This document shows positions 3,187 to 24,645 of a stretch of DNA of 64,000 bases, in pieces. The position numbers were made by a program, and so were the translations under genes. This DNA is from Dehalococcoidia bacterium (GTDB taxonomy: Bacteria; Chloroflexota; Dehalococcoidia; Lucifugimonadales; GCA-2712585), in the NCBI GenBank assembly GCA_965221895.1, contig CBDCSX010000002.1, positions 2,626,930 through 2,690,929 on the forward strand, read 5' to 3'. The notes beneath the pieces are model-generated. The model saw only the letters and a list, made by a program, of their open reading frames with translations. It was not told where the DNA came from and ran no database searches. Numbering within the stretch: the first letter of the stretch is position 1; each line of letters begins with the position of its first letter.

Positions 3187-4155
3187 ATGGAAGTAAAGTT
3201 TGCGGTTAAGCGATACGACCCGATAACCAACGCTGGGAGTTCTACGCAGACGTACAGCGCAGAGGTTGGAGAGGGGGATACCGTTCTTGACGCGTTGCTG
3301 CAGGTACGGGACGAGCAGGACCCGACGCTGGCGTTCCGGGGGAGCTGCCGGACGGGATTTTGCGGCGATTGCACCATGACGGTCAACGGCAAGGGAGCGA
3401 TTACGTGTCGGACCAAGGTGGCGAAGGCGTGGAAGGGCGCCGAGGACGGGGCCATTGAGCTTGAGGCGTTGAAGATGAGCAAGCCGGTCAAGGATTTGGT
3501 GTATAACGCGAGGGAATTTCATTGGGATAAATTCAAGGCTGTGGAGCCGTGGGTGGACCCGGTGCCGCCGCCGCCGGAGGGAGAGCACCTGGTTCCCGGC
3601 GGTCATAGCAAGCACCTGACGGCAGCTATGCGGTGCACCCAGTGCGGTCTGTGCGACCAGGGGTGCACGGTGTTGGTGGTGGACAAGACCTTTGTGGGGC
3701 CGGCGGCTTTGACGAAGGCCTACCGCGCCGTTGCAGATGAGCGGGACAGCCGGAAGCGTCAACGGCTGGACAAGCTAAGCCTCGCCCGGGGGATGTGGGA
3801 CTGCACTCACTGCTTCGAGGCCAGTGAGCATTGTCCGAAGTATATCGAGCCGACGGACCGGATTTTCGACATGCACGACATGGCCATCAAGGCTGAGGCG
3901 GGGCCGCCCAAGGTGGTGCACCACTACAAGAGCTTCGCCGCGTCGGTGAAGGCCCACGGGTGGCTGGACGAGGGGCGGCTGGCGATTGAGACGGAGGGGT
4001 ATACGAACGTGAAGGGGCTGATGAAGCTTTTGCCCTTCGCGGTGAAGGCTGCGATGAAGGGGAAGCGTCCGATGCCGTACATGCTGCACAAGAAGAGACC
4101 CGGCCACGAGCATATCAAGAGGATCTTTGAAAAGTGGGAATCTCAAGCGGAATGA
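3187..4155 (+). CDS. sdhB: Succinate dehydrogenase/fumarate reductase iron-sulfur subunit
   Basis: SCRTGFCGDC 2Fe-2S motif, CTQCGLCDQGC, CTHCFEASEHCP. Confidence 0.95.
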   Translation: MEVKFAVKRYDPITNAGSSTQTYSAEVGEGDTVLDALLQVRDEQDPTLAFRGSCRTGFCGDCTMTVNGKGAITCRTKVAKAWKGAEDGAIELEALKMSKPVKDLVYNAREFHWDKFKAVEPWVDPVPPPPEGEHLVPGGHSKHLTAAMRCTQCGLCDQGCTVLVVDKTFVGPAALTKAYRAVADERDSRKRQRLDKLSLARGMWDCTHCFEASEHCPKYIEPTDRIFDMHDMAIKAEAGPPKVVHHYKSFAASVKAHGWLDEGRLAIETEGYTNVKGLMKLLPFAVKAAMKGKRPMPYMLHKKRPGHEHIKRIFEKWESQAE

Positions 4156-4206
4156 GCCGCTAATTGAATCCGACAACACTATGACAACACAATCAGGAGG
4201 CGCTCC

Positions 4207-5199: not shown

Positions 5200-5673
5200 A
5201 TGGCTAAAAGGTATTGGCTCTTCAAGTCTGAACCTTCCGCCTACTCGTTCGACGATCTCGTTGAAGACGGGGTGGCCGAGTGGGATGGGGTGCGAAATTA
5301 TCAGGCGCGGAATTTGCTGCGGGATGACATCAAGGAGGGGGACGAGGCGCTGTTTTATCACAGCAGTACGAAGCCCCTGGCGGTGATTGGAACCGCCGTT
5401 GTAGTGAAGGGCGGATACCCGGATTTCACGGCGTGGGACCCGGGCTCGGAGCACCCGGACCCGAAGAGCACGCCGGAGAATCCCCTCTGGTTCATGGTTG
5501 ACATAAGGGCGACCTCTCGATTCCTCCGTCCGGTGACGCGGGACATGCTGAAGTCGGCGCCGGAATTGAAGGATATGATGGTGCTTCGCAGGGGGGCGCG
5601 GTTGTCCGTTCAGCCGGTGACGAAGGGGGAGTGGGACTCGGTGGTGCGGATGGGGACGGCAATCGCCGACTGA
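5200..5673 (+). CDS. EVE domain protein
   Basis: YWLFKSEP…WDGVRNYQARN…FYHS…RLSVQPV. Confidence 0.9.
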   Translation: MAKRYWLFKSEPSAYSFDDLVEDGVAEWDGVRNYQARNLLRDDIKEGDEALFYHSSTKPLAVIGTAVVVKGGYPDFTAWDPGSEHPDPKSTPENPLWFMVDIRATSRFLRPVTRDMLKSAPELKDMMVLRRGARLSVQPVTKGEWDSVVRMGTAIAD

Positions 5674-5710
5674 AGGGGAGACCAGTCTTGGTGGGGCCAG
5701 TAGCGACAAG

Positions 5711-5773
5711 GGGCAGGTTTGAAACCTGCCCCTACGTGTGAAGGAGCGTTACGGAGGGGTGGAGGGCGAGGGA
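5711..5773 (+). repeat. Left 63-bp direct repeat bounding the TIR cassette
   Basis: 62/63 identical to 7941-8003; begins with the REP hairpin GGGCAGGTTTGAAACCTGCCCCTAC. Confidence 0.9.
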
Positions 5774-5933
5774 AAGATGGATTCCCGCCCCCGTCTTCAC
5801 GGGGGCAGGCTCTTCGCGGGACGCACCACATAGGCGTTCTGCCCTCGCGCAATCTCAGGTCTATTCTGGAATTGGGGAAGATATGATTATCCAATGACTA
5901 CGGAGATTGAAATGAAAGGTCATCGGTAGGAAA

Positions 5934-6497
5934 ATGGCTATACGGAGGAGAATCTTCTTTAGTTTCCACTATAAGCTGGACAATTGGCGGGCGTCCGAGG
6001 TTAGGAATATGGGCGTGGTCGAGGGCAACACGCCTGTTTCCGACAATACTTGGGAGACCGTCACGCGAGGCGGCGACGCTGCTATTAAGAGGTGGATTGA
6101 CGCCCAGATGTATGGAAAGCCAAGCGTCATTGTCCTGATAGGCGGATACACGTCGAGGCGCAAGTGGGTTAGATACGAGATAGAGAAAGCTTGGAACGAT
6201 GGGAGAGGGTTGGTGGGAATCCACGTTCACAACCTTCGGGACAGCGATCGAAAGCAAACTGTGAAAGGTGCGAATCCCTTCTATAGATTCAGCGTAAACG
6301 GAAAAAGGATGTCCAGCATAGTGAACGCCTTCGACCCTCCATACAAGCGGAGCACCAGCGTATACAACAACATAGCTGCCAACATAGCCGTCTGGGTTGA
6401 GGATGCTATCCGGATCCGGAATAACTATGGAGCGGGCGTTCATCAAGTCGCAAAACGGGTTCGTCAAGAAGCTTCACCAAGGCTCGCTCAAGCCTGA
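5934..6497 (+). CDS. TIR-domain protein (Thoeris ThsB / DUF1863-like); natural stop appears lost
   Basis: RRIFFSFHY…VIVLIG…RKWVRYEI with catalytic Glu; after the expected end (IRNNY) it reads 22 extra codons into the next gene. Confidence 0.85.
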   Translation: MAIRRRIFFSFHYKLDNWRASEVRNMGVVEGNTPVSDNTWETVTRGGDAAIKRWIDAQMYGKPSVIVLIGGYTSRRKWVRYEIEKAWNDGRGLVGIHVHNLRDSDRKQTVKGANPFYRFSVNGKRMSSIVNAFDPPYKRSTSVYNNIAANIAVWVEDAIRIRNNYGAGVHQVAKRVRQEASPRLAQA

Positions 6498-6663
6498 CGA
6501 TGTTTACAAGGTGGCTCCAACGGGCATGGGGCTTCTCGCCGTAGTGCGCTGTTTGGGTTCCGTCTCCATTTGGCTGTTCTATCCCTTGGTTGCCCTCACC
6601 ATTTTCCTCGCTTGGCTGCTCATAATTCCGTCCGACGCTCCGGGCAACAAAGGGCTGTCTTGA
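6427..6663 (+). pseudogene. C-terminal fragment of a small transmembrane protein (probable TIR-system effector)
   Basis: ERAF…CLGSVSIWLFYPLVALTIFLAWLLII hydrophobic helix; resembles from memory the C-half of TM proteins encoded beside DUF1863 TIRs; N-half absent. Confidence 0.5.
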
Positions 6664-7230
6664 CCGTAAAAAAAGATACCCAGACACAAGGTGTTCATTA
6701 GCTGCCACGATGAAGATCGCGAATACAAGAGACGCTTCCGCCAGATGATGGGGGATTCGGTTGTGGACGTTTCGGTGGACGAAGATGACATTGACGACAC
6801 CGGGATGGCAACGGAGACGATTAGTCGGGAGATACGCGACGAGTTCATTCGTCAGTCTTCCGTAACCATAGTACTCCTAGGCCCATGCACTTGGCAGCGA
6901 ATGCACGTGGACTTCGAGATTCATTTCAGTATTCGAGAAACCGACTTCAACCGAAGGTGCGGTCTTTTGGGCATCTTGTTGCCTGAACACCCGGACTACG
7001 GATCGGAAGAATACTGCGATAGATTGATACCTGCCAGACTCCCGGATAACATCGGTGGTAAAAACGCGTACGCAGAGCTTTACGATTGGCCACGGAAGCA
7101 TCCGGGAAGACGAGACAAAGTTCGTCAATGGATAGAAGAAGCGTTCAGTCGGCGAATGAAGATTGTCCCTGACAGCGGCAGGCCGTTGTTGCAAGGTAAT
7201 ATAGGTGGCAGTTGTTTAGATGGGTGGTAG
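6660..7230 (+). CDS. Second TIR-domain protein (DUF1863-like); 5' end frameshifted at an A7 tract or uses an alternative start
   Basis: RHKVFISCH…VTIVLLGPCTWQRMHVDFEI…RCGLLGILLP; TTG at 6660 overlaps the upstream TGA but is one base out of frame across A7 (6668-6674); main ORF 6691-7230. Confidence 0.8.
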
Positions 7231-7256
7231 CGTAAGCCTATGCAACGGGCGTTGCC

Positions 7257-7913
7257 AAATACAAGCCGTACTCCGCCTACAAGCCCTCCAGCGTTCCTTG
7301 GCTGGGCGAGGTGCCGTTCCATTGCGAGGTGAAGTGGCTCAAGGGTCACGTAACAAACGTTATTGACCTCAGTAGACCTCCACGCCACGACGATATTTCC
7401 CTTGCCCTTGAGCATGTCGAAAGCTGGACGGGGAGGTTCACCGCTGCTGGCAATGGGGTTGGATTCGATAGCCAGATGAAACGGTTTGGGGATGGAGACG
7501 TACTCTTCGGCAAGTTGAGGCCCTACCTGGCTAAAGATACTCGACCATGCCGGAATGGGCTTTGCGTAGGCGAATTTTGGTGCTCCGCCGCCGCAATAGG
7601 AATCTGTCACTAGGGTTTCTTAAGCAGTTTCTACGTTCCAAACCAGCTATTCATGTAATTGATGCATCGACTTTTGGGGACCAAATGCCCCGTGCGGGTT
7701 GGAAATTCATCGGTACATACGCCTCATCTCCCGCCACTTGCTGAGCAGACCGCCATTGTGGGGTACCTGGACAAGGCTACCGCTGCCATCGTCCGAGCCC
7801 GCCGCCAAATCGAATTTCGACAGGATTACCGAACCTGCCTCATCTCCGACGTGGTCACGGGTAAGTTGTACGTTCGGCAGGCGATGGTTGATTCTTCGTT
7901 GAGTTCGGAATGA
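7257..7913 (+). pseudogene. hsdS: Type I restriction-modification specificity subunit remnant, frameshifted, about half length
   Basis: KPYSAYKPSSVPWLGEVP, GDVLFGKLRPYL, PPLAEQTAIV..YLD, LISDVVTGK spread over different frames; no start codon. Confidence 0.8.
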
Positions 7914-7940
7914 CGTGCAACGATAGAATGTCTGGGGAGA

Positions 7941-8003
7941 GGGCAGGTTTGAAACCTGCCCCTACGTGTGAAAGAGCGTTACGGAGGGGTGGAGGGCGAG
8001 GGA
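7941..8003 (+). repeat. Right 63-bp direct repeat bounding the TIR cassette
   Basis: 62/63 identical to 5711-5773. Confidence 0.9.
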
Positions 8004-8099
8004 GGATTTCCGCCCCCGCAGGTGCGAGAATGGTAGAGGGGTTGGGGAGATGGATTCCAGTCTTCGTCTTCATGGGGGCAGGCTCTATGAGGGATGCCC

Positions 8100-9518
8100 C
8101 TACGTGGGTGGTTTGGGGGGGCGGTTCCTTCCTAAGTCGTCCAGCTTCTGACGAAGGAGGTTGCGGCGTTGCCTGGGGGTAAGTCGTCTCCAGAACCTTG
8201 TGCTGGGGCCGGAGGGTGGTTTGGTGAATACGCCGGGCTCCTGTGGTGATGGGGTTGTTGGGCTGGGCGCATCGTCGGGAGATTCCTCCACTCTTTCTAT
8301 GGGCCGACGCAAGGCTGGCATGAAGATGGCTATGAGCAGGAGAAGGACCAGCCCCCCTATCGCGTTGGCGGTGAGGGCGACGCTCATGCCGAAGATGGAC
8401 GCGAGTGCGCCAATTTCGACGTTGCCCATCTGACCGGTGCTGATGGCCAAACCCTGGGCGCCAAATACGCGGCTGTGGAAGTTGGTTGGGCTGCTGGTGA
8501 GGAGGATGCCGCTCTGCATTGTGGAGAAACCGCACTGGAAGATGCCCATGGCGATGAGGATGAAGAAGGAGAGGAGGAACCAGGGGGAAAGGGCGAATGC
8601 GAGGAGGAAGATGGCCACGCCGAGGCAGCCGCCCAGGAAGATTCTGCCGCTGATTTTGATGCGGCTTGCCAGCAATCCGATGAGGAGGGAGCCGAAAACG
8701 AAGCCTATGCCGTCGGCGGCGGCCAGGAGGCCCATGAGGCCAGCGCCGACGTGTAGGTGATCGGCGGCAATGACGGGGATGAATAGGTGGTATTGGAATA
8801 ATACGTTCATAACCACACTGGCGGTCAGCACGCCGGCAATGGCAGGGGTGGAATAAGCATATTTCAGTCCTTCGCCGATGCTTTTGATGACGGGACGGCG
8901 GGCAAGGGACGTAACCACGGGAGGGGTCTTCAGCAGGAATATGCAGACGAAGCCAAAAAGGTAGAGGCCGGTCAGGAGAACGTAGACGCTGATGGCGGTG
9001 CCCGATATCAGGAGGAGGACTCCAATGACGAGGGGGCCGACGATTCTGCCGGCGCTGAATCCCAACTGCTCCAAGGAGATGGCCTGCACGAGGTTGTCTT
9101 GGCCGACAACGTGGAACATGAGGGCCCTGCGGCTGGTGTTGTCGAAGGCCCGGCAGGCCCCTCGGATGGCGGCGGCAATGAAAAGGAAGTAGGGATCGAC
9201 GGACCCAATTAGGAGGATGACCAGCACACTAGCGACAACAGCCAAGCTGACTAGGTTGGAGGCCATGATGATGTGTCGCCGGTCCTTCCGGTCGCCGATG
9301 GCACCGGCGAGGAGGGTGAAGGCGAACATGGAGACGGTGTGGCTGAGGCCCAGCAGAGCCACCTGCCACGGAGAGCCGGTGAGCTGATGGATGAACCAAC
9401 CCATGACGAGGAGCTCGGACATGTCTCCGCTGGTGGAGATGCTGCCGTTGCTCAATAGAAACTGGAAGTTCCGGTTTCTTATGAGGTGGAAGAGGGGTTT
9501 TTTGATTCTGGGACGCAC
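8100..9518 (-). CDS. MFS transporter (DHA3/H+ antiporter-like)
   Basis: About 12 hydrophobic segments, GAIGDRKDRR motif A; Pro-rich tail running into the REP region. Confidence 0.9.
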   Translation of the reverse strand: MRPRIKKPLFHLIRNRNFQFLLSNGSISTSGDMSELLVMGWFIHQLTGSPWQVALLGLSHTVSMFAFTLLAGAIGDRKDRRHIIMASNLVSLAVVASVLVILLIGSVDPYFLFIAAAIRGACRAFDNTSRRALMFHVVGQDNLVQAISLEQLGFSAGRIVGPLVIGVLLLISGTAISVYVLLTGLYLFGFVCIFLLKTPPVVTSLARRPVIKSIGEGLKYAYSTPAIAGVLTASVVMNVLFQYHLFIPVIAADHLHVGAGLMGLLAAADGIGFVFGSLLIGLLASRIKISGRIFLGGCLGVAIFLLAFALSPWFLLSFFILIAMGIFQCGFSTMQSGILLTSSPTNFHSRVFGAQGLAISTGQMGNVEIGALASIFGMSVALTANAIGGLVLLLLIAIFMPALRRPIERVEESPDDAPSPTTPSPQEPGVFTKPPSGPSTRFWRRLTPRQRRNLLRQKLDDLGRNRPPKPPT

Positions 9519-9852
9519 GGTTTCTCGTTGGGACGGAGGATGTGGGGCGTGGGTAGAACGTGATAGCTATACATTGTATTGTGATGTAGAGGGGAAACCA
9601 TAGGGTTGGGGCTGCGGACTTGGGCGGGATGGGGGCTGGTGTGGTGGGCGACCACGAGGGAGGGCAGGTTTGAAACCTGCCCCTACGGGCGATATGACGG
9701 ATTGTTTCCGAGGCTGGCGCCACCCTACGGGTTGTTAGCAAGGTGGGTTTCAACAGCATGGAGACAGTCTATTTTCAGAGTAATGATATTTGGCACGTCC
9801 GGGAATGATGGAATCGGGTTGACCTTGTGGGCCTACGTAGAGGGTGGAGACG

Positions 9853-9894
9853 TTGACGTGGGTGTGGATGGGCCGTAAAGGTTGAGTAAGACTC
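9853..9894 (+). promoter_or_regulatory. Degenerate copy of the TA promoter/operator
   Basis: TTGACG -35 and palindrome GAGTAAGACTC, matching 12273-12315. Confidence 0.55.
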
Positions 9895-9913
9895 GGTAAC
9901 GGGGGGGCGGTAG

Positions 9914-10070
9914 ATGCCAAGAACGACGAAGATGATTACGTTCTCGCTGGCCCCGGAGATGGTGGAGAGGGTGGACCGGGTGACGAGACGGCAGGGGAGA
10001 CGGCGGAGAGGGTTCCTGCGAGAGTCAGTGCGGGCAACGGAAGCGGCGGTGGGGGAACCAACGCGGTGTC
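9914..10070 (+). pseudogene. Truncated CopG/ribbon-helix-helix antitoxin (copy 1)
   Basis: MPRTTKMITFSLAPEMVERVD… similar to 12334-12594, then breaks down. Confidence 0.75.
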
Positions 10071-10799
10071 GTGATGGTATATCGTCTCTTTTCTGAACAC
10101 AGTTTGGCGGAGTTGTACGACGCGTTCTGCGCGGGAAGGAAGGACTTCGGGTTCTATCTTCCACTGGTGATGTCGGCGAGAAGCGTACTTGATGTGGGCT
10201 GCGGTACGGGTGAGTTACTTCGCTTGGCGAGGGAAGCTGGACACACCGGCCGACTGTGCGGGCTCGATCCTGCCAATGCGATGCTTGATGAGTCACGGAA
10301 GCGGTCAGACATAGAGTGGGTGCTCGGTGACCTAACTTCGGTGGACTGGTGTCGAGAGTTCGATCTCGTCGTAATGACTGGTCATGCGTTTCAAGTGTTC
10401 GTCGATGACGACCAACTGAGAGAGTCGCTGACCGCAATACGGTCGGCACTTACGGGGGCCGGACGCTTCGTGTTCGAGACACGCAATCCACTCGCCAGGG
10501 AATGGCGGAACTGGACTCCTGGCAACGCGGCAGAGGTTGTGCACAACGGCCGTGTCGTGCAAATGGCACACCAGGTGGAGACCCACGTTGTCGGCGACAT
10601 TGTCTCTTTCACCGCTACATTCACAAGTACAAGCTGGAACCGGCCTCAGATCAGTCGAAGCGCGCTGAGATTCCTTGGGACAGAATTGCTGTCCTCCTTC
10701 CTTTCTGGGGCGGGCTTGGCAATCGAGGAACTGTTCGGAGATTGAGACCTGCAGGAACTTACGGACACTAGTCCGGAGATCATTACCGTAGCACGTTGA
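10071..10799 (+). pseudogene. Class I SAM-dependent methyltransferase with a premature stop near the C-terminus
   Basis: VLDVGCGTG motif I; TGA at 10743-10745 in FGD*D (expected FGDWD), followed in frame by DLQELTDTSPEIITVAR*. Confidence 0.75.
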
Positions 10800-10893
10800 G
10801 CCTGAGCCGGGAGTCGGCAACCTCGGCGGACAGTCTGCTAATGAACTTGGTCAGTGTGGAAGAGGTAGTGAACAGGCCAGAAACGGGGGATAG

Positions 10894-11180
10894 ATGCCAA
10901 GAAGCACAAAGAAGATTGCGTTCTCGCTGTCCACGGAGATGGCGGAGCGGGTGGACCAGGTGACGAGACGGCAGGGGAGATCCAGGAGTGGGTTTCTGCG
11001 GGAGGGTGTGTTGCGATACATTGAGGAGTGTGAGTGAAGACGGCTCTCCAGCATGGAGAACAGAGGGTGAGGGAGAAGAGGATTGGTTCCGAGAACGTGG
11101 CTGACTTGGTGGAAGAATACCTGGCTGAGGTTGGCGACCTCCTACGGGCATGAGAGTTGTTTTGGGCACGAACGTTATGG
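10894..11180 (+). pseudogene. CopG antitoxin with nonsense codon plus the start of a PIN toxin (copy 2)
   Basis: MPRSTKKIAFSL…EECE* (TGG to TGA relative to the intact copy); ATGAGAGTTGTTTTGGGCACGAACG resembles the PIN start at 12591. Confidence 0.8.
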
Positions 11181-11284
11181 GGATGCTCCCTTTGACAAAC
11201 GTTGATTCCTCAGCGTAGGGTAAAATTCCCATAGTTTTAAGAGTAGCTAACATTCTACCGGACGTTGATGGCCGGGTGGATAAA

Positions 11285-11443
11285 ATGGAGAAAACGCAAG
11301 ACGGGGATTACGACCTCATATTGCGGCTGGAGACTAACCACAGCGAATTGATTGCCATCGTCAAAAGCGTGGATAGAATTCTATCCGCAGTCCAACATGA
11401 GTTGACGCATCTACGGCTGTTGCACGAGAGGATAAAAAGATGA
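11285..11443 (+). CDS. Small hypothetical protein (52 aa)
   Basis: Open ATG-to-TGA frame with ATGA overlap onto the next gene; absent from the ORF track because of length. Confidence 0.45.
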   Translation: MEKTQDGDYDLILRLETNHSELIAIVKSVDRILSAVQHELTHLRLLHERIKR

Positions 11444-11865
11444 AAGTGATTGCGATTCTTGGTTTGGTGCTGGCCTTGGCGGTTGCATGTGGTGGAGGCA
11501 ACGTGTTCGACATCGGGGTAGGGGATTGCTTCAACTACGAGGAATCTGATGAGATAACTGATGTCGAGTTCACACAGTGCGATGATCCGCATCAGCGCGA
11601 GGTGTACGCTGAAGTCTCGATCGACGTGGCCGCAGGCATGGCGTACCCTGGTGATTACCGCGTGGATGAAGTGGCGTCTAACCTCTGTTTGAAGCGCTTC
11701 GACGAGTTTGTCGGGACTTCCTACTTCGACTCGGCGCTCGAGATCGAGGCGTTCACCCCGACACGGGATTCGTGGGAAGACGAAGACGACCGAAAAGTCA
11801 GTTGCTTGCTGTACGACCTCGAAGACCTCTACATGGAAGGAACCATGCGGGGCAGCGGCCGATAA
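11440..11865 (+). CDS. Lipoprotein with a Septum_form-like domain
   Basis: Lipobox LAVAC; VGDCF…CDDPHQREVY…C…W..DRKVSCL. Confidence 0.75.
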   Translation: MKVIAILGLVLALAVACGGGNVFDIGVGDCFNYEESDEITDVEFTQCDDPHQREVYAEVSIDVAAGMAYPGDYRVDEVASNLCLKRFDEFVGTSYFDSALEIEAFTPTRDSWEDEDDRKVSCLLYDLEDLYMEGTMRGSGR

Positions 11866-11959
11866 TAGCTGATGACAATTACCTGATTTCCAACTGAGAC
11901 ACTGCCCAGACTTGAGACCGGGCTTGGTAATTGCTAGTTGGCCAATAGAGGAGTTTGGC

Positions 11960-12057
11960 CATGTCTCCGCTGGTGGAGATGCTGCCGTTGCTCAATAGAG
12001 ACTGGAAGGTCCGGTTTCTTATGAGGTCGAAGAGGGGGTTATTGATTCTGGGGCGCA
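11960..12057 (-). pseudogene. Duplicated 5' fragment of the MFS gene (copy of 9420-9517)
   Basis: About 94% identical over 98 bp; differences are mostly non-synonymous. Confidence 0.85.
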
Positions 12058-12272
12058 CTGGTTTTTACGGAAGCGGGCGCGCACGAGGGATGCCCCTACG
12101 GGGGAAGGTGGAAAGGGGTGCCCACGAGGGGCGGCCCTACGGAGGAAGGTGTGGGGAGGGTTGAGCTTAGGACGACGGGATTCTTCGCTGCGCTCAGAAT
12201 GACGTGTTGTACGCCCTTGAATGACAGGAGTGGGTGGACACAAGGCCTAGAACTACATCTAGGGTGGAGACG

Positions 12273-12315
12273 TTGACGTGGGCTTGGAGAGTGCGTAGCA
12301 TGGTGAGTAAGACTC
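12273..12315 (+). promoter_or_regulatory. TA promoter with a palindromic operator candidate
   Basis: TTGACG-17-TAGCAT, then GAGTAAGACTC inverted repeat near the expected transcription start. Confidence 0.65.
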
Positions 12316-12333
12316 GGTAATGGAGAGCGCACA

Positions 12334-12594
12334 GTGCCAAGAACTACGAAGACGATTACATTCTCTTTGCCCCCGGAGTTCGCGGAAAGAGTGGACCAGG
12401 TAACAAAACAGCAGGGAAGGTCCAGGAGCGAGTTTCTGAGGGAGGCTGTGCTTCGTTACATGGAGGAGTGCGAGTGGAGGCAGCTGCTCCAGTATGGAGA
12501 GCGGAGGGCGAGGGAGAAGAGGATTGGCCCTGAGGACGTGGCTGACCTGGTGGAAGAATACCGAGCTGAGGTTGGCAACCAGCTCCAGGCATGA
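12334..12594 (+). CDS. CopG/ribbon-helix-helix antitoxin (intact copy 3)
   Basis: TITFSLPPE…SRSEFLREAVLRY; ATGA overlap with the PIN gene. Confidence 0.85.
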   Translation: MPRTTKTITFSLPPEFAERVDQVTKQQGRSRSEFLREAVLRYMEECEWRQLLQYGERRAREKRIGPEDVADLVEEYRAEVGNQLQA

Positions 12595-12995
12595 GGGTCG
12601 TCTTGGACACGAACGTCATTGTCTCAGGTCTGAACTTTCCTGGTAACGAACGTTTGGTTCTCGACCTCGCCCTGAGGGGACGATACGAGTTGTGCCTATC
12701 CCCATTCATTTTGGAGGAGGTGGCCGGGGTGCTCGTGCGCAAGTTTGGTTGGGCGGAGGAACGCTCATCCGAGGCCGTCAGGGTGTTGCGGGATTCTGCT
12801 ACCGTCATTGAACCCACCATGCGCCTGCAAGTGATTGAAGGGGACCACGCAGACAACCGCATCCTGGAGTGTGCCGCGACTGTTGGTGCTGATTACCTAG
12901 TGACGGGCGATCGGAGACACTTATTGCCTATGGAGAGACATCTGGGTGCGAGAATTCTTAATGCCCCGCGGTTTCTATTGGAGTTGGAGGGGTGA
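12591..12995 (+). CDS. PIN-domain toxin (VapC-like, PIN_3 type)
   Basis: MRVVLDTNV…DNRILECA…ADYLVTGDR.HLL. Confidence 0.92.
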   Translation: MRVVLDTNVIVSGLNFPGNERLVLDLALRGRYELCLSPFILEEVAGVLVRKFGWAEERSSEAVRVLRDSATVIEPTMRLQVIEGDHADNRILECAATVGADYLVTGDRRHLLPMERHLGARILNAPRFLLELEG

Positions 12996-24306: not shown

Positions 24307-24645
24307 TGAAACCTGCCCCTACGGAGAAGGGGTTGAGTGTAGGGGGTGTGGGGAAGATGGATTCCCGCCCCCGTCTTCACGGGGGCAGGATATTCGCGGG
24401 AAAAACGGAGGGAGGGATGGGTCCCCGCATCCGCGAGGACAACGGAAGGGGGAGGGCGGTTCGCGAACCGCCCCTACGGTTGGTCGGTAGTTGGGAAGTT
24501 TGGAGGGCAAGGGCGGGTTTGAAACCTGCCCCTACGGAGAAGGGGTTGAGTGTAGGGGGTGTGGTAAAGATGGATTCAAGCCCCCGTCTTCACGGGGGTA
24601 GGCTGTTCGCGGGAACAGCGGAGGGAGGGATGGGTCCCCGCATCC

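Follow-up and report, generated by a model that had tools for sequence, protein, structure and literature searches.

In the genome of a Dehalococcoidia bacterium, remnants of defense genes occupy 2.2 kb between two nearly identical 63-bp direct repeats derived from a REP element, which raises the question of whether such DNA enters and leaves by recombination at a REP module. A sequence-only reading of the 64,000-nucleotide stretch analysed here (the window) had proposed this. If the repeats did mediate entry and exit, they would represent an integrase-free, REP-based turnover of defense genes, helping to explain how hotspots between core genes are refilled. Our evidence points to a REP-rich hotspot that holds a slowly eroding relic of a TIR system embedded in a type I R-M operon, the repeats being a by-product of local repeat dynamics.

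An eroded R-M fragment at the EVE–MFS junction

The repeats are flanked on the left by a conserved EVE-domain gene (5200..5673, plus strand; Pfam PF01878, 173 bits) and on the right by a conserved MFS transporter gene (8100..9518, minus strand; PF05977 and PF07690, with orthologues). Orthologues of the EVE gene adjoin the MFS gene in 12 congeners. The gap between the two genes measures only 20–320 bp in eight congeneric species; in G009 it consists of 726 bp of repeats and in G007 it is filled with other cargo, including an IS110, while the TIR cassette lies at this site in three species, the genome under study (G000), G010, and G008. The 2.2 kb are accessory DNA at a conserved junction. Since eight congeners have the EVE and MFS genes side by side, this junction is a hotspot, with fixed flanking genes and cargo that varies or is missing among relatives.

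The gene content previously read from the sequence was confirmed: the 2.2 kb hold a TIR gene, a fragment of a transmembrane protein (TM) gene, a second TIR gene, and an hsdS remnant. As also claimed, no ORF between the repeats encodes an integrase; the direct repeats of an integrase-borne island are present, but an integrase or recombinase gene is absent. TIR1 (5934..6497, plus strand) is a ThsB-like TIR protein (PF08937, 84 bits; PADLOC ThsB, 230 bits) that also matches PADLOC PDC-M50B (192.7 bits), which identifies it as component B of the candidate system PDC-M50. Its native end lies near 6430, the final 22 residues forming a new tail made by a deletion; the orthologues in G010 and G008 are 172–176 aa long and end in ...NNYGG. 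When the junctions of G000 and G010 are aligned, the deletion maps to a TGGAG microhomology (6428..6432, plus strand), and 1,463 bp of G010 are missing here, namely the N-terminal half of the TM gene and an IS5-family element. The remaining two-helix ORF (6427..6663, plus strand) is a pseudogene, the C-terminal fragment of a PDC-M50A-type small membrane protein, and matches residues 68–160 of the intact 161-aa homologue of G008. This intact homologue scores 96.6 bits against PDC-M50A; the window fragment gave no PADLOC match and is not an intact component A, and in G010 the gene is interrupted by an IS. TIR2 (6691..7230, plus strand; PF08937, 53.5 bits) is encoded after the TM gene in G007, in G008, and at three other loci of this genome. 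The hsdS pseudogene (7250..7913, plus strand) retains N- and C-terminal pieces, recognized by PADLOC as type I specificity subunit at 7311–7613 and 7659–7913; it is frameshifted, has lost ~700 nt internally, and is colinear with the intact hsdS found after TIR2 in G007 and at C2:681016–682362. It is the only type I R-M gene at the locus, complete operons being located elsewhere in the genome, and no ThsA, the Thoeris effector, is encoded among the locus ORFs.

The order of these genes reveals their origin. The cargo is colinear with an intact type I R-M operon of G007 (hsdM-abiE-TIR1-TM-TIR2-X-hsdS-hsdR), and two R-M operons of this genome contain the shorter core TM-TIR2-hsdS. Instead of a discrete cassette, the locus holds part of a type I R-M operon in which a TIR-TM-TIR system had been embedded. 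This yields a clean annotation of the relic, with G007 as the intact TIR-TM-TIR reference inside such an operon and the TM-TIR core also available in this genome. TIR2 is followed by an extra gene both in G008 (239 aa) and in G007 (167 aa); the two show no homology to each other and give no polarity to the history. Recent copying of the cassette from other TM-TIR loci of the same genome was rejected, the best nucleotide matches being 68–83% over <250 nt.

A composite REP unit with a locus-specific linker

Positions 5711–5773 and 7941–8003 are indeed identical at 62 of 63 sites, the lone mismatch being G at 5743 and A at 7973. These repeats are the best-kept part of two copies of a composite REP unit of 117–160 bp, made of a GTAG-headed REP hairpin (H1), a G-rich linker (the tail), and a second hairpin element (H2), so that the similarity extends past 63 bp (81% between 5775–5827 and 8048–8100). 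In the left copy, H1 (GGGGCAGGTTTGAAACCTGCCCC; 5709..5735, no strand assigned) is an inverted repeat with its GTAG head on the minus strand (CTAC, 5732–5735) and forms a stable hairpin in a DNA fold; its right counterpart spans 7939..7965 (no strand assigned). H1 is a multicopy palindrome with a GTAG-type tetranucleotide beside the hairpin: the 25-nt hairpin on its own has ~24 copies in the genome, and GTAGGGG-plus-hairpin sites number 76. The 37-nt linker follows at 5736..5772 and 7966..8002 (both plus strand) and represents a divergent form of the linker found in other REP composites. The left H2 (5775..5827, plus strand) is a nested hairpin (TCCCGC...GCGGGA) from a family of ~75 copies; the right H2 (8048..8103, plus strand) is decayed and runs into a third REP head that is truncated and whose CTAC contains the MFS stop codon (8100–8102). 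A 44-nt insert consisting of a small hairpin and a spacer (8004..8047, plus strand) separates tail and H2 in the right copy. It is specific to the long form of the unit, represented here by the right copy, the left being the short form, and recurs in the single copy of G008 and in copy c of G010.

The sequence-only reading had not seen the tail with other REP copies of the window. This stands for the exact sequence, which has two matches in the window against none expected from shuffles and only these two copies in the 3.61-Mb genome, with up to six mismatches tolerated. It does not stand for the layout: composite relatives of the tail with 73–82% identity occur at 24511–24614 and 24307–24401 of the window and elsewhere in the genome, all arranged as REP hairpin-CTAC, G-rich linker, ...AAAGATGG, and second hairpin. 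A module common throughout the genome would have spoken against a role in mobility, and the exact tail occurs just twice. That two independent REP insertions came to lie here by chance was ruled out, because both copies share a linker unique in the genome. A search of 13 congeners and 185,579 species genomes recovered the tail at this locus only, in G000, G010, and G008. The unit belongs to a dispersed family of composites, of which this sub-variant is confined to the EVE–MFS hotspot of three sister species, in 1, 2, or 4 copies. Such composites of different hairpin types joined by recurring linkers are familiar from the BIMEs of Escherichia coli, and the arrangement here is the same.

History of the bracket in three sister species

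The cassette and both copies of the module are common to G000 and G010, with 94.5–96.6% identity in the flanks and mostly 91–98% in the cargo. Since the island and its repeats have diverged to an extent similar to that of the flanks, the arrangement is older than the separation of these species, and neither lineage has excised the cassette. G008 carries the cassette with a single copy of the module, which could result from secondary loss; its right end differs, hsdS being absent and an unrelated 239-aa gene present. G010 has four copies, one of which replaces ~125 nt of the hsdS pseudogene and two of which lie 294 bp apart without any gene in between, indicating that the module multiplies independently of the cargo. 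The sequence-only reading had named relatives with both repeats and no cargo as evidence against itself, and this gene-free pair of G010 comes close to that situation.

That reading, in which the cassette entered and leaves by recombination at the REP module, through a RecA-type single crossover or a RAYT, with the repeats as attL/attR-like scars, is quite unlikely in light of these observations. It does account for repeats that bracket precisely the accessory DNA without an integrase, and a short left and a long right copy are just what a single crossover within hairpin plus tail would produce if a circle with the short form met a resident site with the long form. Empty sites in congeners are also in its favor, as is the lack of cargo DNA in G011, the closest relative by its MFS protein (97% aa identity), in an assembly that is 70% complete and in which the 1.7-kb MFS contig ends inside an H2 repeat. 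An empty site with a single repeat had been predicted. EVE–MFS sites are empty in eight congeners, but none of these has the tail-bearing module, and no empty site with a single such module was found in the 185,579 species genomes or in JGI metagenomes. The EVE relatives in the metagenomes were too distant (≤74% identity), and exact-protein look-ups for strain-level variants returned nothing or the same G008 genome only. Along with the absence of the tail from empty sites, an arrangement that predates the G000/G010 split and is excised in neither species, a single copy beside the G008 cargo, and extra copies unrelated to cargo in G010 all argue against the module as a route of entry or exit.

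The RAYT gene anticipated by the same reading does have a candidate in the genome, a 171-aa RAYT-like ORF (C2:1870779–1871294) that scores 77.2 bits against NF047646 (cut-off 80) and 27.7 bits against Pfam Y1_Tnp (cut-off 23). GTAG REPs flank this ORF. However, the two GTAGGGGCG..TCGCGA.. REPs that follow it are of a different subfamily from H1, and the gene has no close orthologue in G008 or in G010, the species in which the module is most multiplied. Transport of gene cargo is not a known activity of RAYTs.

Another way to obtain the bracket is a homology-facilitated insertion from a related lineage, in which donor DNA made of flank, module, and cassette would have recombined homologously at one end and illegitimately at the other. 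The resident module would then be left beside that of the donor, as ordinary flanking homology and not as a REP-specific site. Similar duplications accompany several insertions in this genus. In the window, a methyltransferase gene and other genes are enclosed by copies of the MFS 5' end (9408–9523 and 11948–12064) together with three CopG 5' copies; this insert is present in G000 and G008 and missing in G010 and G009. In G007, an ~200-bp copy of the MFS 3' end lies to the left of the IS110-containing insert at the same site. We nevertheless regard this origin as unlikely for the present cargo: no donor lineage came to light, a repeat of this length does not separate an orthologous from a paralogous origin, and the extra copies of G010 are left unexplained.

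The near-identity of the repeats might also reflect selection and not recency, if hairpin and tail were kept at both ends by a function in RNA 3'-end formation, stability, or insulation between the convergent EVE, cassette, and MFS transcripts. The seven copies of the three species differ at 1–13 of 63 sites (2–7 of 63 between orthologous copies), the adjacent H2 has fallen to 81% identity in the right copy, and the hairpins lie 38 nt past the EVE stop and 27 nt past that of hsdS, all of which favors such a function. On the other hand, a scan for terminators and promoters found nothing at the modules, which have no T-run terminator, no Rfam family matches between 5500 and 8300, folding of the right unit is not significantly more stable than that of shuffled sequences (z = −1.67), and the tail is missing from all other congeners, so that we consider such a role highly improbable.

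The explanation that we prefer, with a probability of about 0.5, is a local change in copy number of the REP unit around an eroding island; the 128 short direct-repeat pairs that lie ≤30 kb apart in this genome count in its favor. The comparison shows that the cargo, the eroded rest of a type I R-M operon that housed a TIR-TM-TIR system (PDC-M50-like), was in place before the split of the three species, and that it was then inherited vertically and decayed in a different way in each. The decay proceeded by IS insertion in G010, by microhomology deletion here, and by loss or replacement of hsdS in G008. During this erosion, the bracket most likely arose by a change in copy number of the REP unit, through duplication, gene conversion, or patch replacement, for which G010 is the precedent, where one copy occupies the position of 125 nt of hsdS and a further one is arranged in tandem. 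The two copies of G000 differ from each other at one site and from their respective G010 orthologues at two and four sites; this lower divergence within G000, in very few sites, may be a sign of gene conversion or of an event that happened later. The bracket probably does not record how the cassette entered, and the locus does not show a new route for the movement of defense genes. Judging from repeat length, the near-identity over 63–83 bp could support a rare RecA-dependent deletion of the relic. A more general scheme for this clade, in which locus-specific REP composites spread over short ranges, overwrite their neighbors as in the hsdS of G010, and, together with duplicated flanks, drive an integrase-free turnover of defense genes at core-gene hotspots, seems very doubtful to us.

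Comparison with known systems

Short GC-rich extragenic hairpins with a GTAG head and tens of copies relate the module to REP/BIME and REPIN-RAYT elements, as does the single-copy RAYT-like gene flanked by REPs (Bertels & Rainey 2011, PMC3116915; PMC3337134; PMC5581495). The duplicated unit differs from a REPIN in that it joins a single REP hairpin, through a linker, to a different and unrelated hairpin and does not form an inverted REP doublet, and from REPIN-RAYT systems in that the sub-variant is restricted to one locus.

Regarding the cargo, both TIR proteins match the ThsB TIR family of Thoeris; unlike Thoeris, their partner is a small membrane protein and not a ThsA with a SIR2 or Macro effector. 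The order TIR1-TM-TIR2-hsdS equals that of the intact embedded operon of G007, and TIR1 and the intact TM homologue match the two components of the PADLOC candidate PDC-M50; by definition, PDCs are genes located inside R-M systems (Payne et al. 2024, bioRxiv 10.1101/2024.01.29.577857). Unlike a working R-M-embedded system, the window is devoid of hsdM, hsdR, and abiE, hsdS survives as a pseudogene, and the TM gene lacks its N-terminal half; the locus is a relic and not a functional embedded system. The site itself resembles core defense hotspots (Johnson et al. 2023, PMC10250203), being a junction of two core genes that is empty or variably filled without an integrase, and it departs from them in a cargo that is decayed and largely vertical in its three species and in its dense packing with REP and MITE repeats.

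Anatomy of the repeat module

Between the conserved genes EVE (5200..5673, + strand) and MFS (8100..9518, - strand), the direct repeats at 5711-5773 and 7941-8003 match at 62 of 63 positions, as the sequence-only reading had described, and their similarity extends further than it had stated: 5775-5827 and 8048-8100 are 81% identical, and a 44-nt insert in the right copy (8004-8047) separates the tail from H2. Each copy of this module has three parts: H1, a perfect hairpin with CTAC directly 3' of it (GTAG when read on the opposite strand); the tail, a G-rich 37-nt linker with the 3' terminus AAAGATGG; and H2, a nested hairpin whose family numbers ~75 copies in the genome (G000). REPs, such as those of E. 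coli with their RAYT, are typified by a GTAG head. The hairpin is indeed a true REP by its head and its many copies: 76 sites combine GTAGGGG with a hairpin across the genome, in several subfamilies, and the 25-nt H1 hairpin alone has ~24 copies.

The tail occurs twice in the window (zero expected from shuffles) and just twice in the entire 3.61-Mb, two-contig genome with up to 6 mismatches tolerated. In a search of 13 congeners and 185,579 species genomes, it was confined to the EVE-MFS locus of G000 and of the congeners G010 and G008, and JGI metagenomes gave no match. That no other REP copy in the window was seen with it holds for the exact tail, but not for the layout, since REP hairpin-CTAC, linker, and H2 recur in this order at 73-82% identity in the window (24511-24614, 24307-24401) and at other genomic sites; the module is thus a local, diverged form of a composite repeat that is dispersed in the genome. 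When folded as single-stranded DNA, the left unit forms strong hairpins (z = -4.8), whereas those of the longer right unit are not strong (z = -1.7); the modules match no Rfam family and contain no T-run terminator. That the hairpin-plus-tail segment has a selected function, which would be compatible with the other readings, seems to us improbable.

Elsewhere, the linker-plus-H2 element (GGAGAAGGGGTTGAGTGTAGGGGGTGTGGTAAAGATGG plus hairpin) adjoins the CTAC of at least two REP hairpin types (24307-24401, 24511-24614, and C2:2283894-2284496, on the second contig) and may insert beside REP heads. A REP head, GTAGGGGC (8096-8103), encloses the MFS stop codon TAG (8100-8102, minus strand); MFS of G008 has a longer C-terminus and lacks that REP, from which it follows that REP insertion reshaped the 3' end of the gene. 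On C2, GTAG-headed REPs are mostly in + orientation at 1.8-2.29 Mb and all in - orientation at 2.5-2.67 Mb; this flip (~2.25-2.5 Mb) lies close to the cumulative GC-skew minimum (~2.25 Mb), which suggests that REP deposition or selection is strand-specific with respect to replication.

Cargo and history of the EVE-MFS site

Pfam and PADLOC profile matches bore out the proposed gene content: a ThsB-type TIR1 (5934-6497; PF08937, 84 bits; PADLOC ThsB, 230 bits, and PDC-M50B, 193 bits), the C-terminal half of a PDC-M50A-type membrane protein (TM; small ORF 6427-6663), a second TIR, TIR2 (6691-7230), and two pieces of a type I specificity subunit, hsdS (7311-7613 and 7659-7913). Rather than a self-contained cassette, this cargo is what erosion has left of a restriction-modification (R-M) operon in which a TIR system was embedded, because its gene order is colinear with an intact operon of the congener G007 (hsdM-abiEi-abiEii-TIR1-TM-TIR2-X-hsdS-hsdR), because TM-TIR2 modules lie within two complete type I R-M operons of G000 (C2:677,990-687,230 and C2:2,175,634-2,185,692), and because PADLOC defines its PDC candidates by their embedding in BREX, DISARM, or type I R-M systems (bioRxiv 10.1101/2024.01.29.577857). 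A third G000 copy of TM-TIR2, at C2:822,759-823,772, is solo. The two operons read hsdM-abiEi-abiEii-TM-TIR-hsdS-hsdR and hsdM-TM-TIR-X-hsdS-PIN-hsdR; as the three other TM-plus-TIR (PDC-M50-like) modules of G000 lack a ThsB-like TIR1, TM and the second TIR seem to make up the conserved core. Recent copying of the cargo from other G000 loci was rejected, the best nucleotide matches being short stretches at 68-83%.

EVE and MFS are convergent neighbors across the genus. The site between them is empty in eight congeners (gap of 20-320 bp), holds only REPs and MITEs in G009 (726 bp), an IS110-family element and a small ORF in G007, and the TIR cassette in G000, G010, and G008, the closest complete genomes. 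G000 and G010 share 94.5-96.6% identity in the flanks and mostly 91-98% in the cargo (by 100-nt bins, a few stretches falling lower); since cargo divergence resembles that of the flanks, their common ancestor already had the cassette and both copies of the module. An IS5-family element (target duplication CTAG) interrupts the PDC-M50A homolog of G010, and G000 lacks 1,463 bp covering the position of this insertion, with TGGAG microhomology at the deletion junction (6428-6432). In G008, TIR1 is 89.5% identical, TM (intact PDC-M50A homolog, 161 aa, 96.6 bits) and TIR2 are divergent, an unrelated 239-aa gene takes the place of hsdS, and a single module copy, of the long form, stands on the left.

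Origin of the bracketing repeats

We favor, with a probability of roughly one half, local change in copy number of the REP composite, which would have shifted while a former R-M/defense island eroded at the EVE-MFS site. This reading is preferred because short direct-repeat pairs are common in G000 (128 pairs at most 30 kb apart) and because G010 offers a direct precedent with four module copies: one on the left, one occupying the place of ~125 nt of the hsdS pseudogene, and two on the right, separated by 294 bp that contain only a MITE and repeat sequence. The two G000 copies differ at 1/63 positions, the left one from its G010 orthologue at 2/63, the right one from its own at 4/63, and both from the G008 copy at 6-7/63, which hints at some homogenization within G000, albeit from very few sites. 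The long-form module of G010 contains, at intergenic 3780-3900 of the oriented locus L025, a ~120-bp MITE whose terminal inverted repeats read GGAGACCTTTGCATAAC...GTTATGCAAAGGTCTCC; relatives of this MITE fill the G009 gap.

The sequence-only reading had the cassette enter and leave by recombination at the REP module, integrase-free, possibly through RAYT or RecA. The cargo is indeed accessory DNA in a conserved hotspot and contains no integrase, and the short-left, long-right arrangement is the expected product of one crossover within the hairpin plus tail. RecA could in principle delete the DNA between repeats of 63-83 bp, as the minimal efficient processing segment of E. coli measures ~25-50 bp. 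A genome scan found a RAYT-like gene (C2:1870779-1871294; NF047646, 77.2 bits, cut-off 80; Pfam Y1_Tnp, 27.7, cut-off 23), but the two REPs adjoining it downstream belong to another subfamily, and neither G010 nor G008 has a close orthologue of it. In G011, the closest relative, no cargo DNA appears in an assembly that is only 70% complete and whose MFS contig ends within the H2 repeat. However, the arrangement is of long standing and has stayed stable in two lineages, G008 has cargo with one module copy, the extra copies of G010 are unrelated to cargo, and no empty site carries the module. None of the comparisons made supports this specific route, which we regard as unlikely.

Somewhat less doubtful is a homology-facilitated insertion from a relative that duplicated a piece of flank, a pattern seen again nearby. 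Beside the site, in a second bracketed insert (9408-12619), two copies of the MFS 5' end (9408-9523 and 11948-12064, 91%) and three of a CopG 5' region (9915, 10895, 12335) flank a methyltransferase gene together with a small ORF that has a Septum_form domain (PF13845). This insert is present in G000 and G008 (89.7% identity) and absent from G010 and G009, implying loss between repeats or independent gain. At the G007 site (locus L027), a ~200-bp pseudo-copy of the MFS 3' end (2003-2200 vs. 4106-4200, 58 bp identical) lies left of an insert with a small membrane ORF and an IS110-family transposase, and intact MFS follows on the right. On the first contig, a 19.6-kb defense island (C1:71,143-91,067, locus L067; SIR2-like, Mrr-STAND NTPase, HEPN, PD-T7-1, and type IIG/ISP R-M enzyme genes) is flanked by two copies, in direct orientation and 97% identical, of a 153-bp MITE that has terminal inverted repeats; with ~13 copies genome-wide and ~0.4 such pairs expected, this bracket may be due to chance.

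The original observation is correct, and its most probable explanation is an ordinary one. The EVE-MFS module is closer in kind to a BIME than to a REPIN, and the locus adds one more case to kinds already known: REP/BIME-like repeats, a core-gene defense hotspot, and decaying R-M-embedded defense genes.
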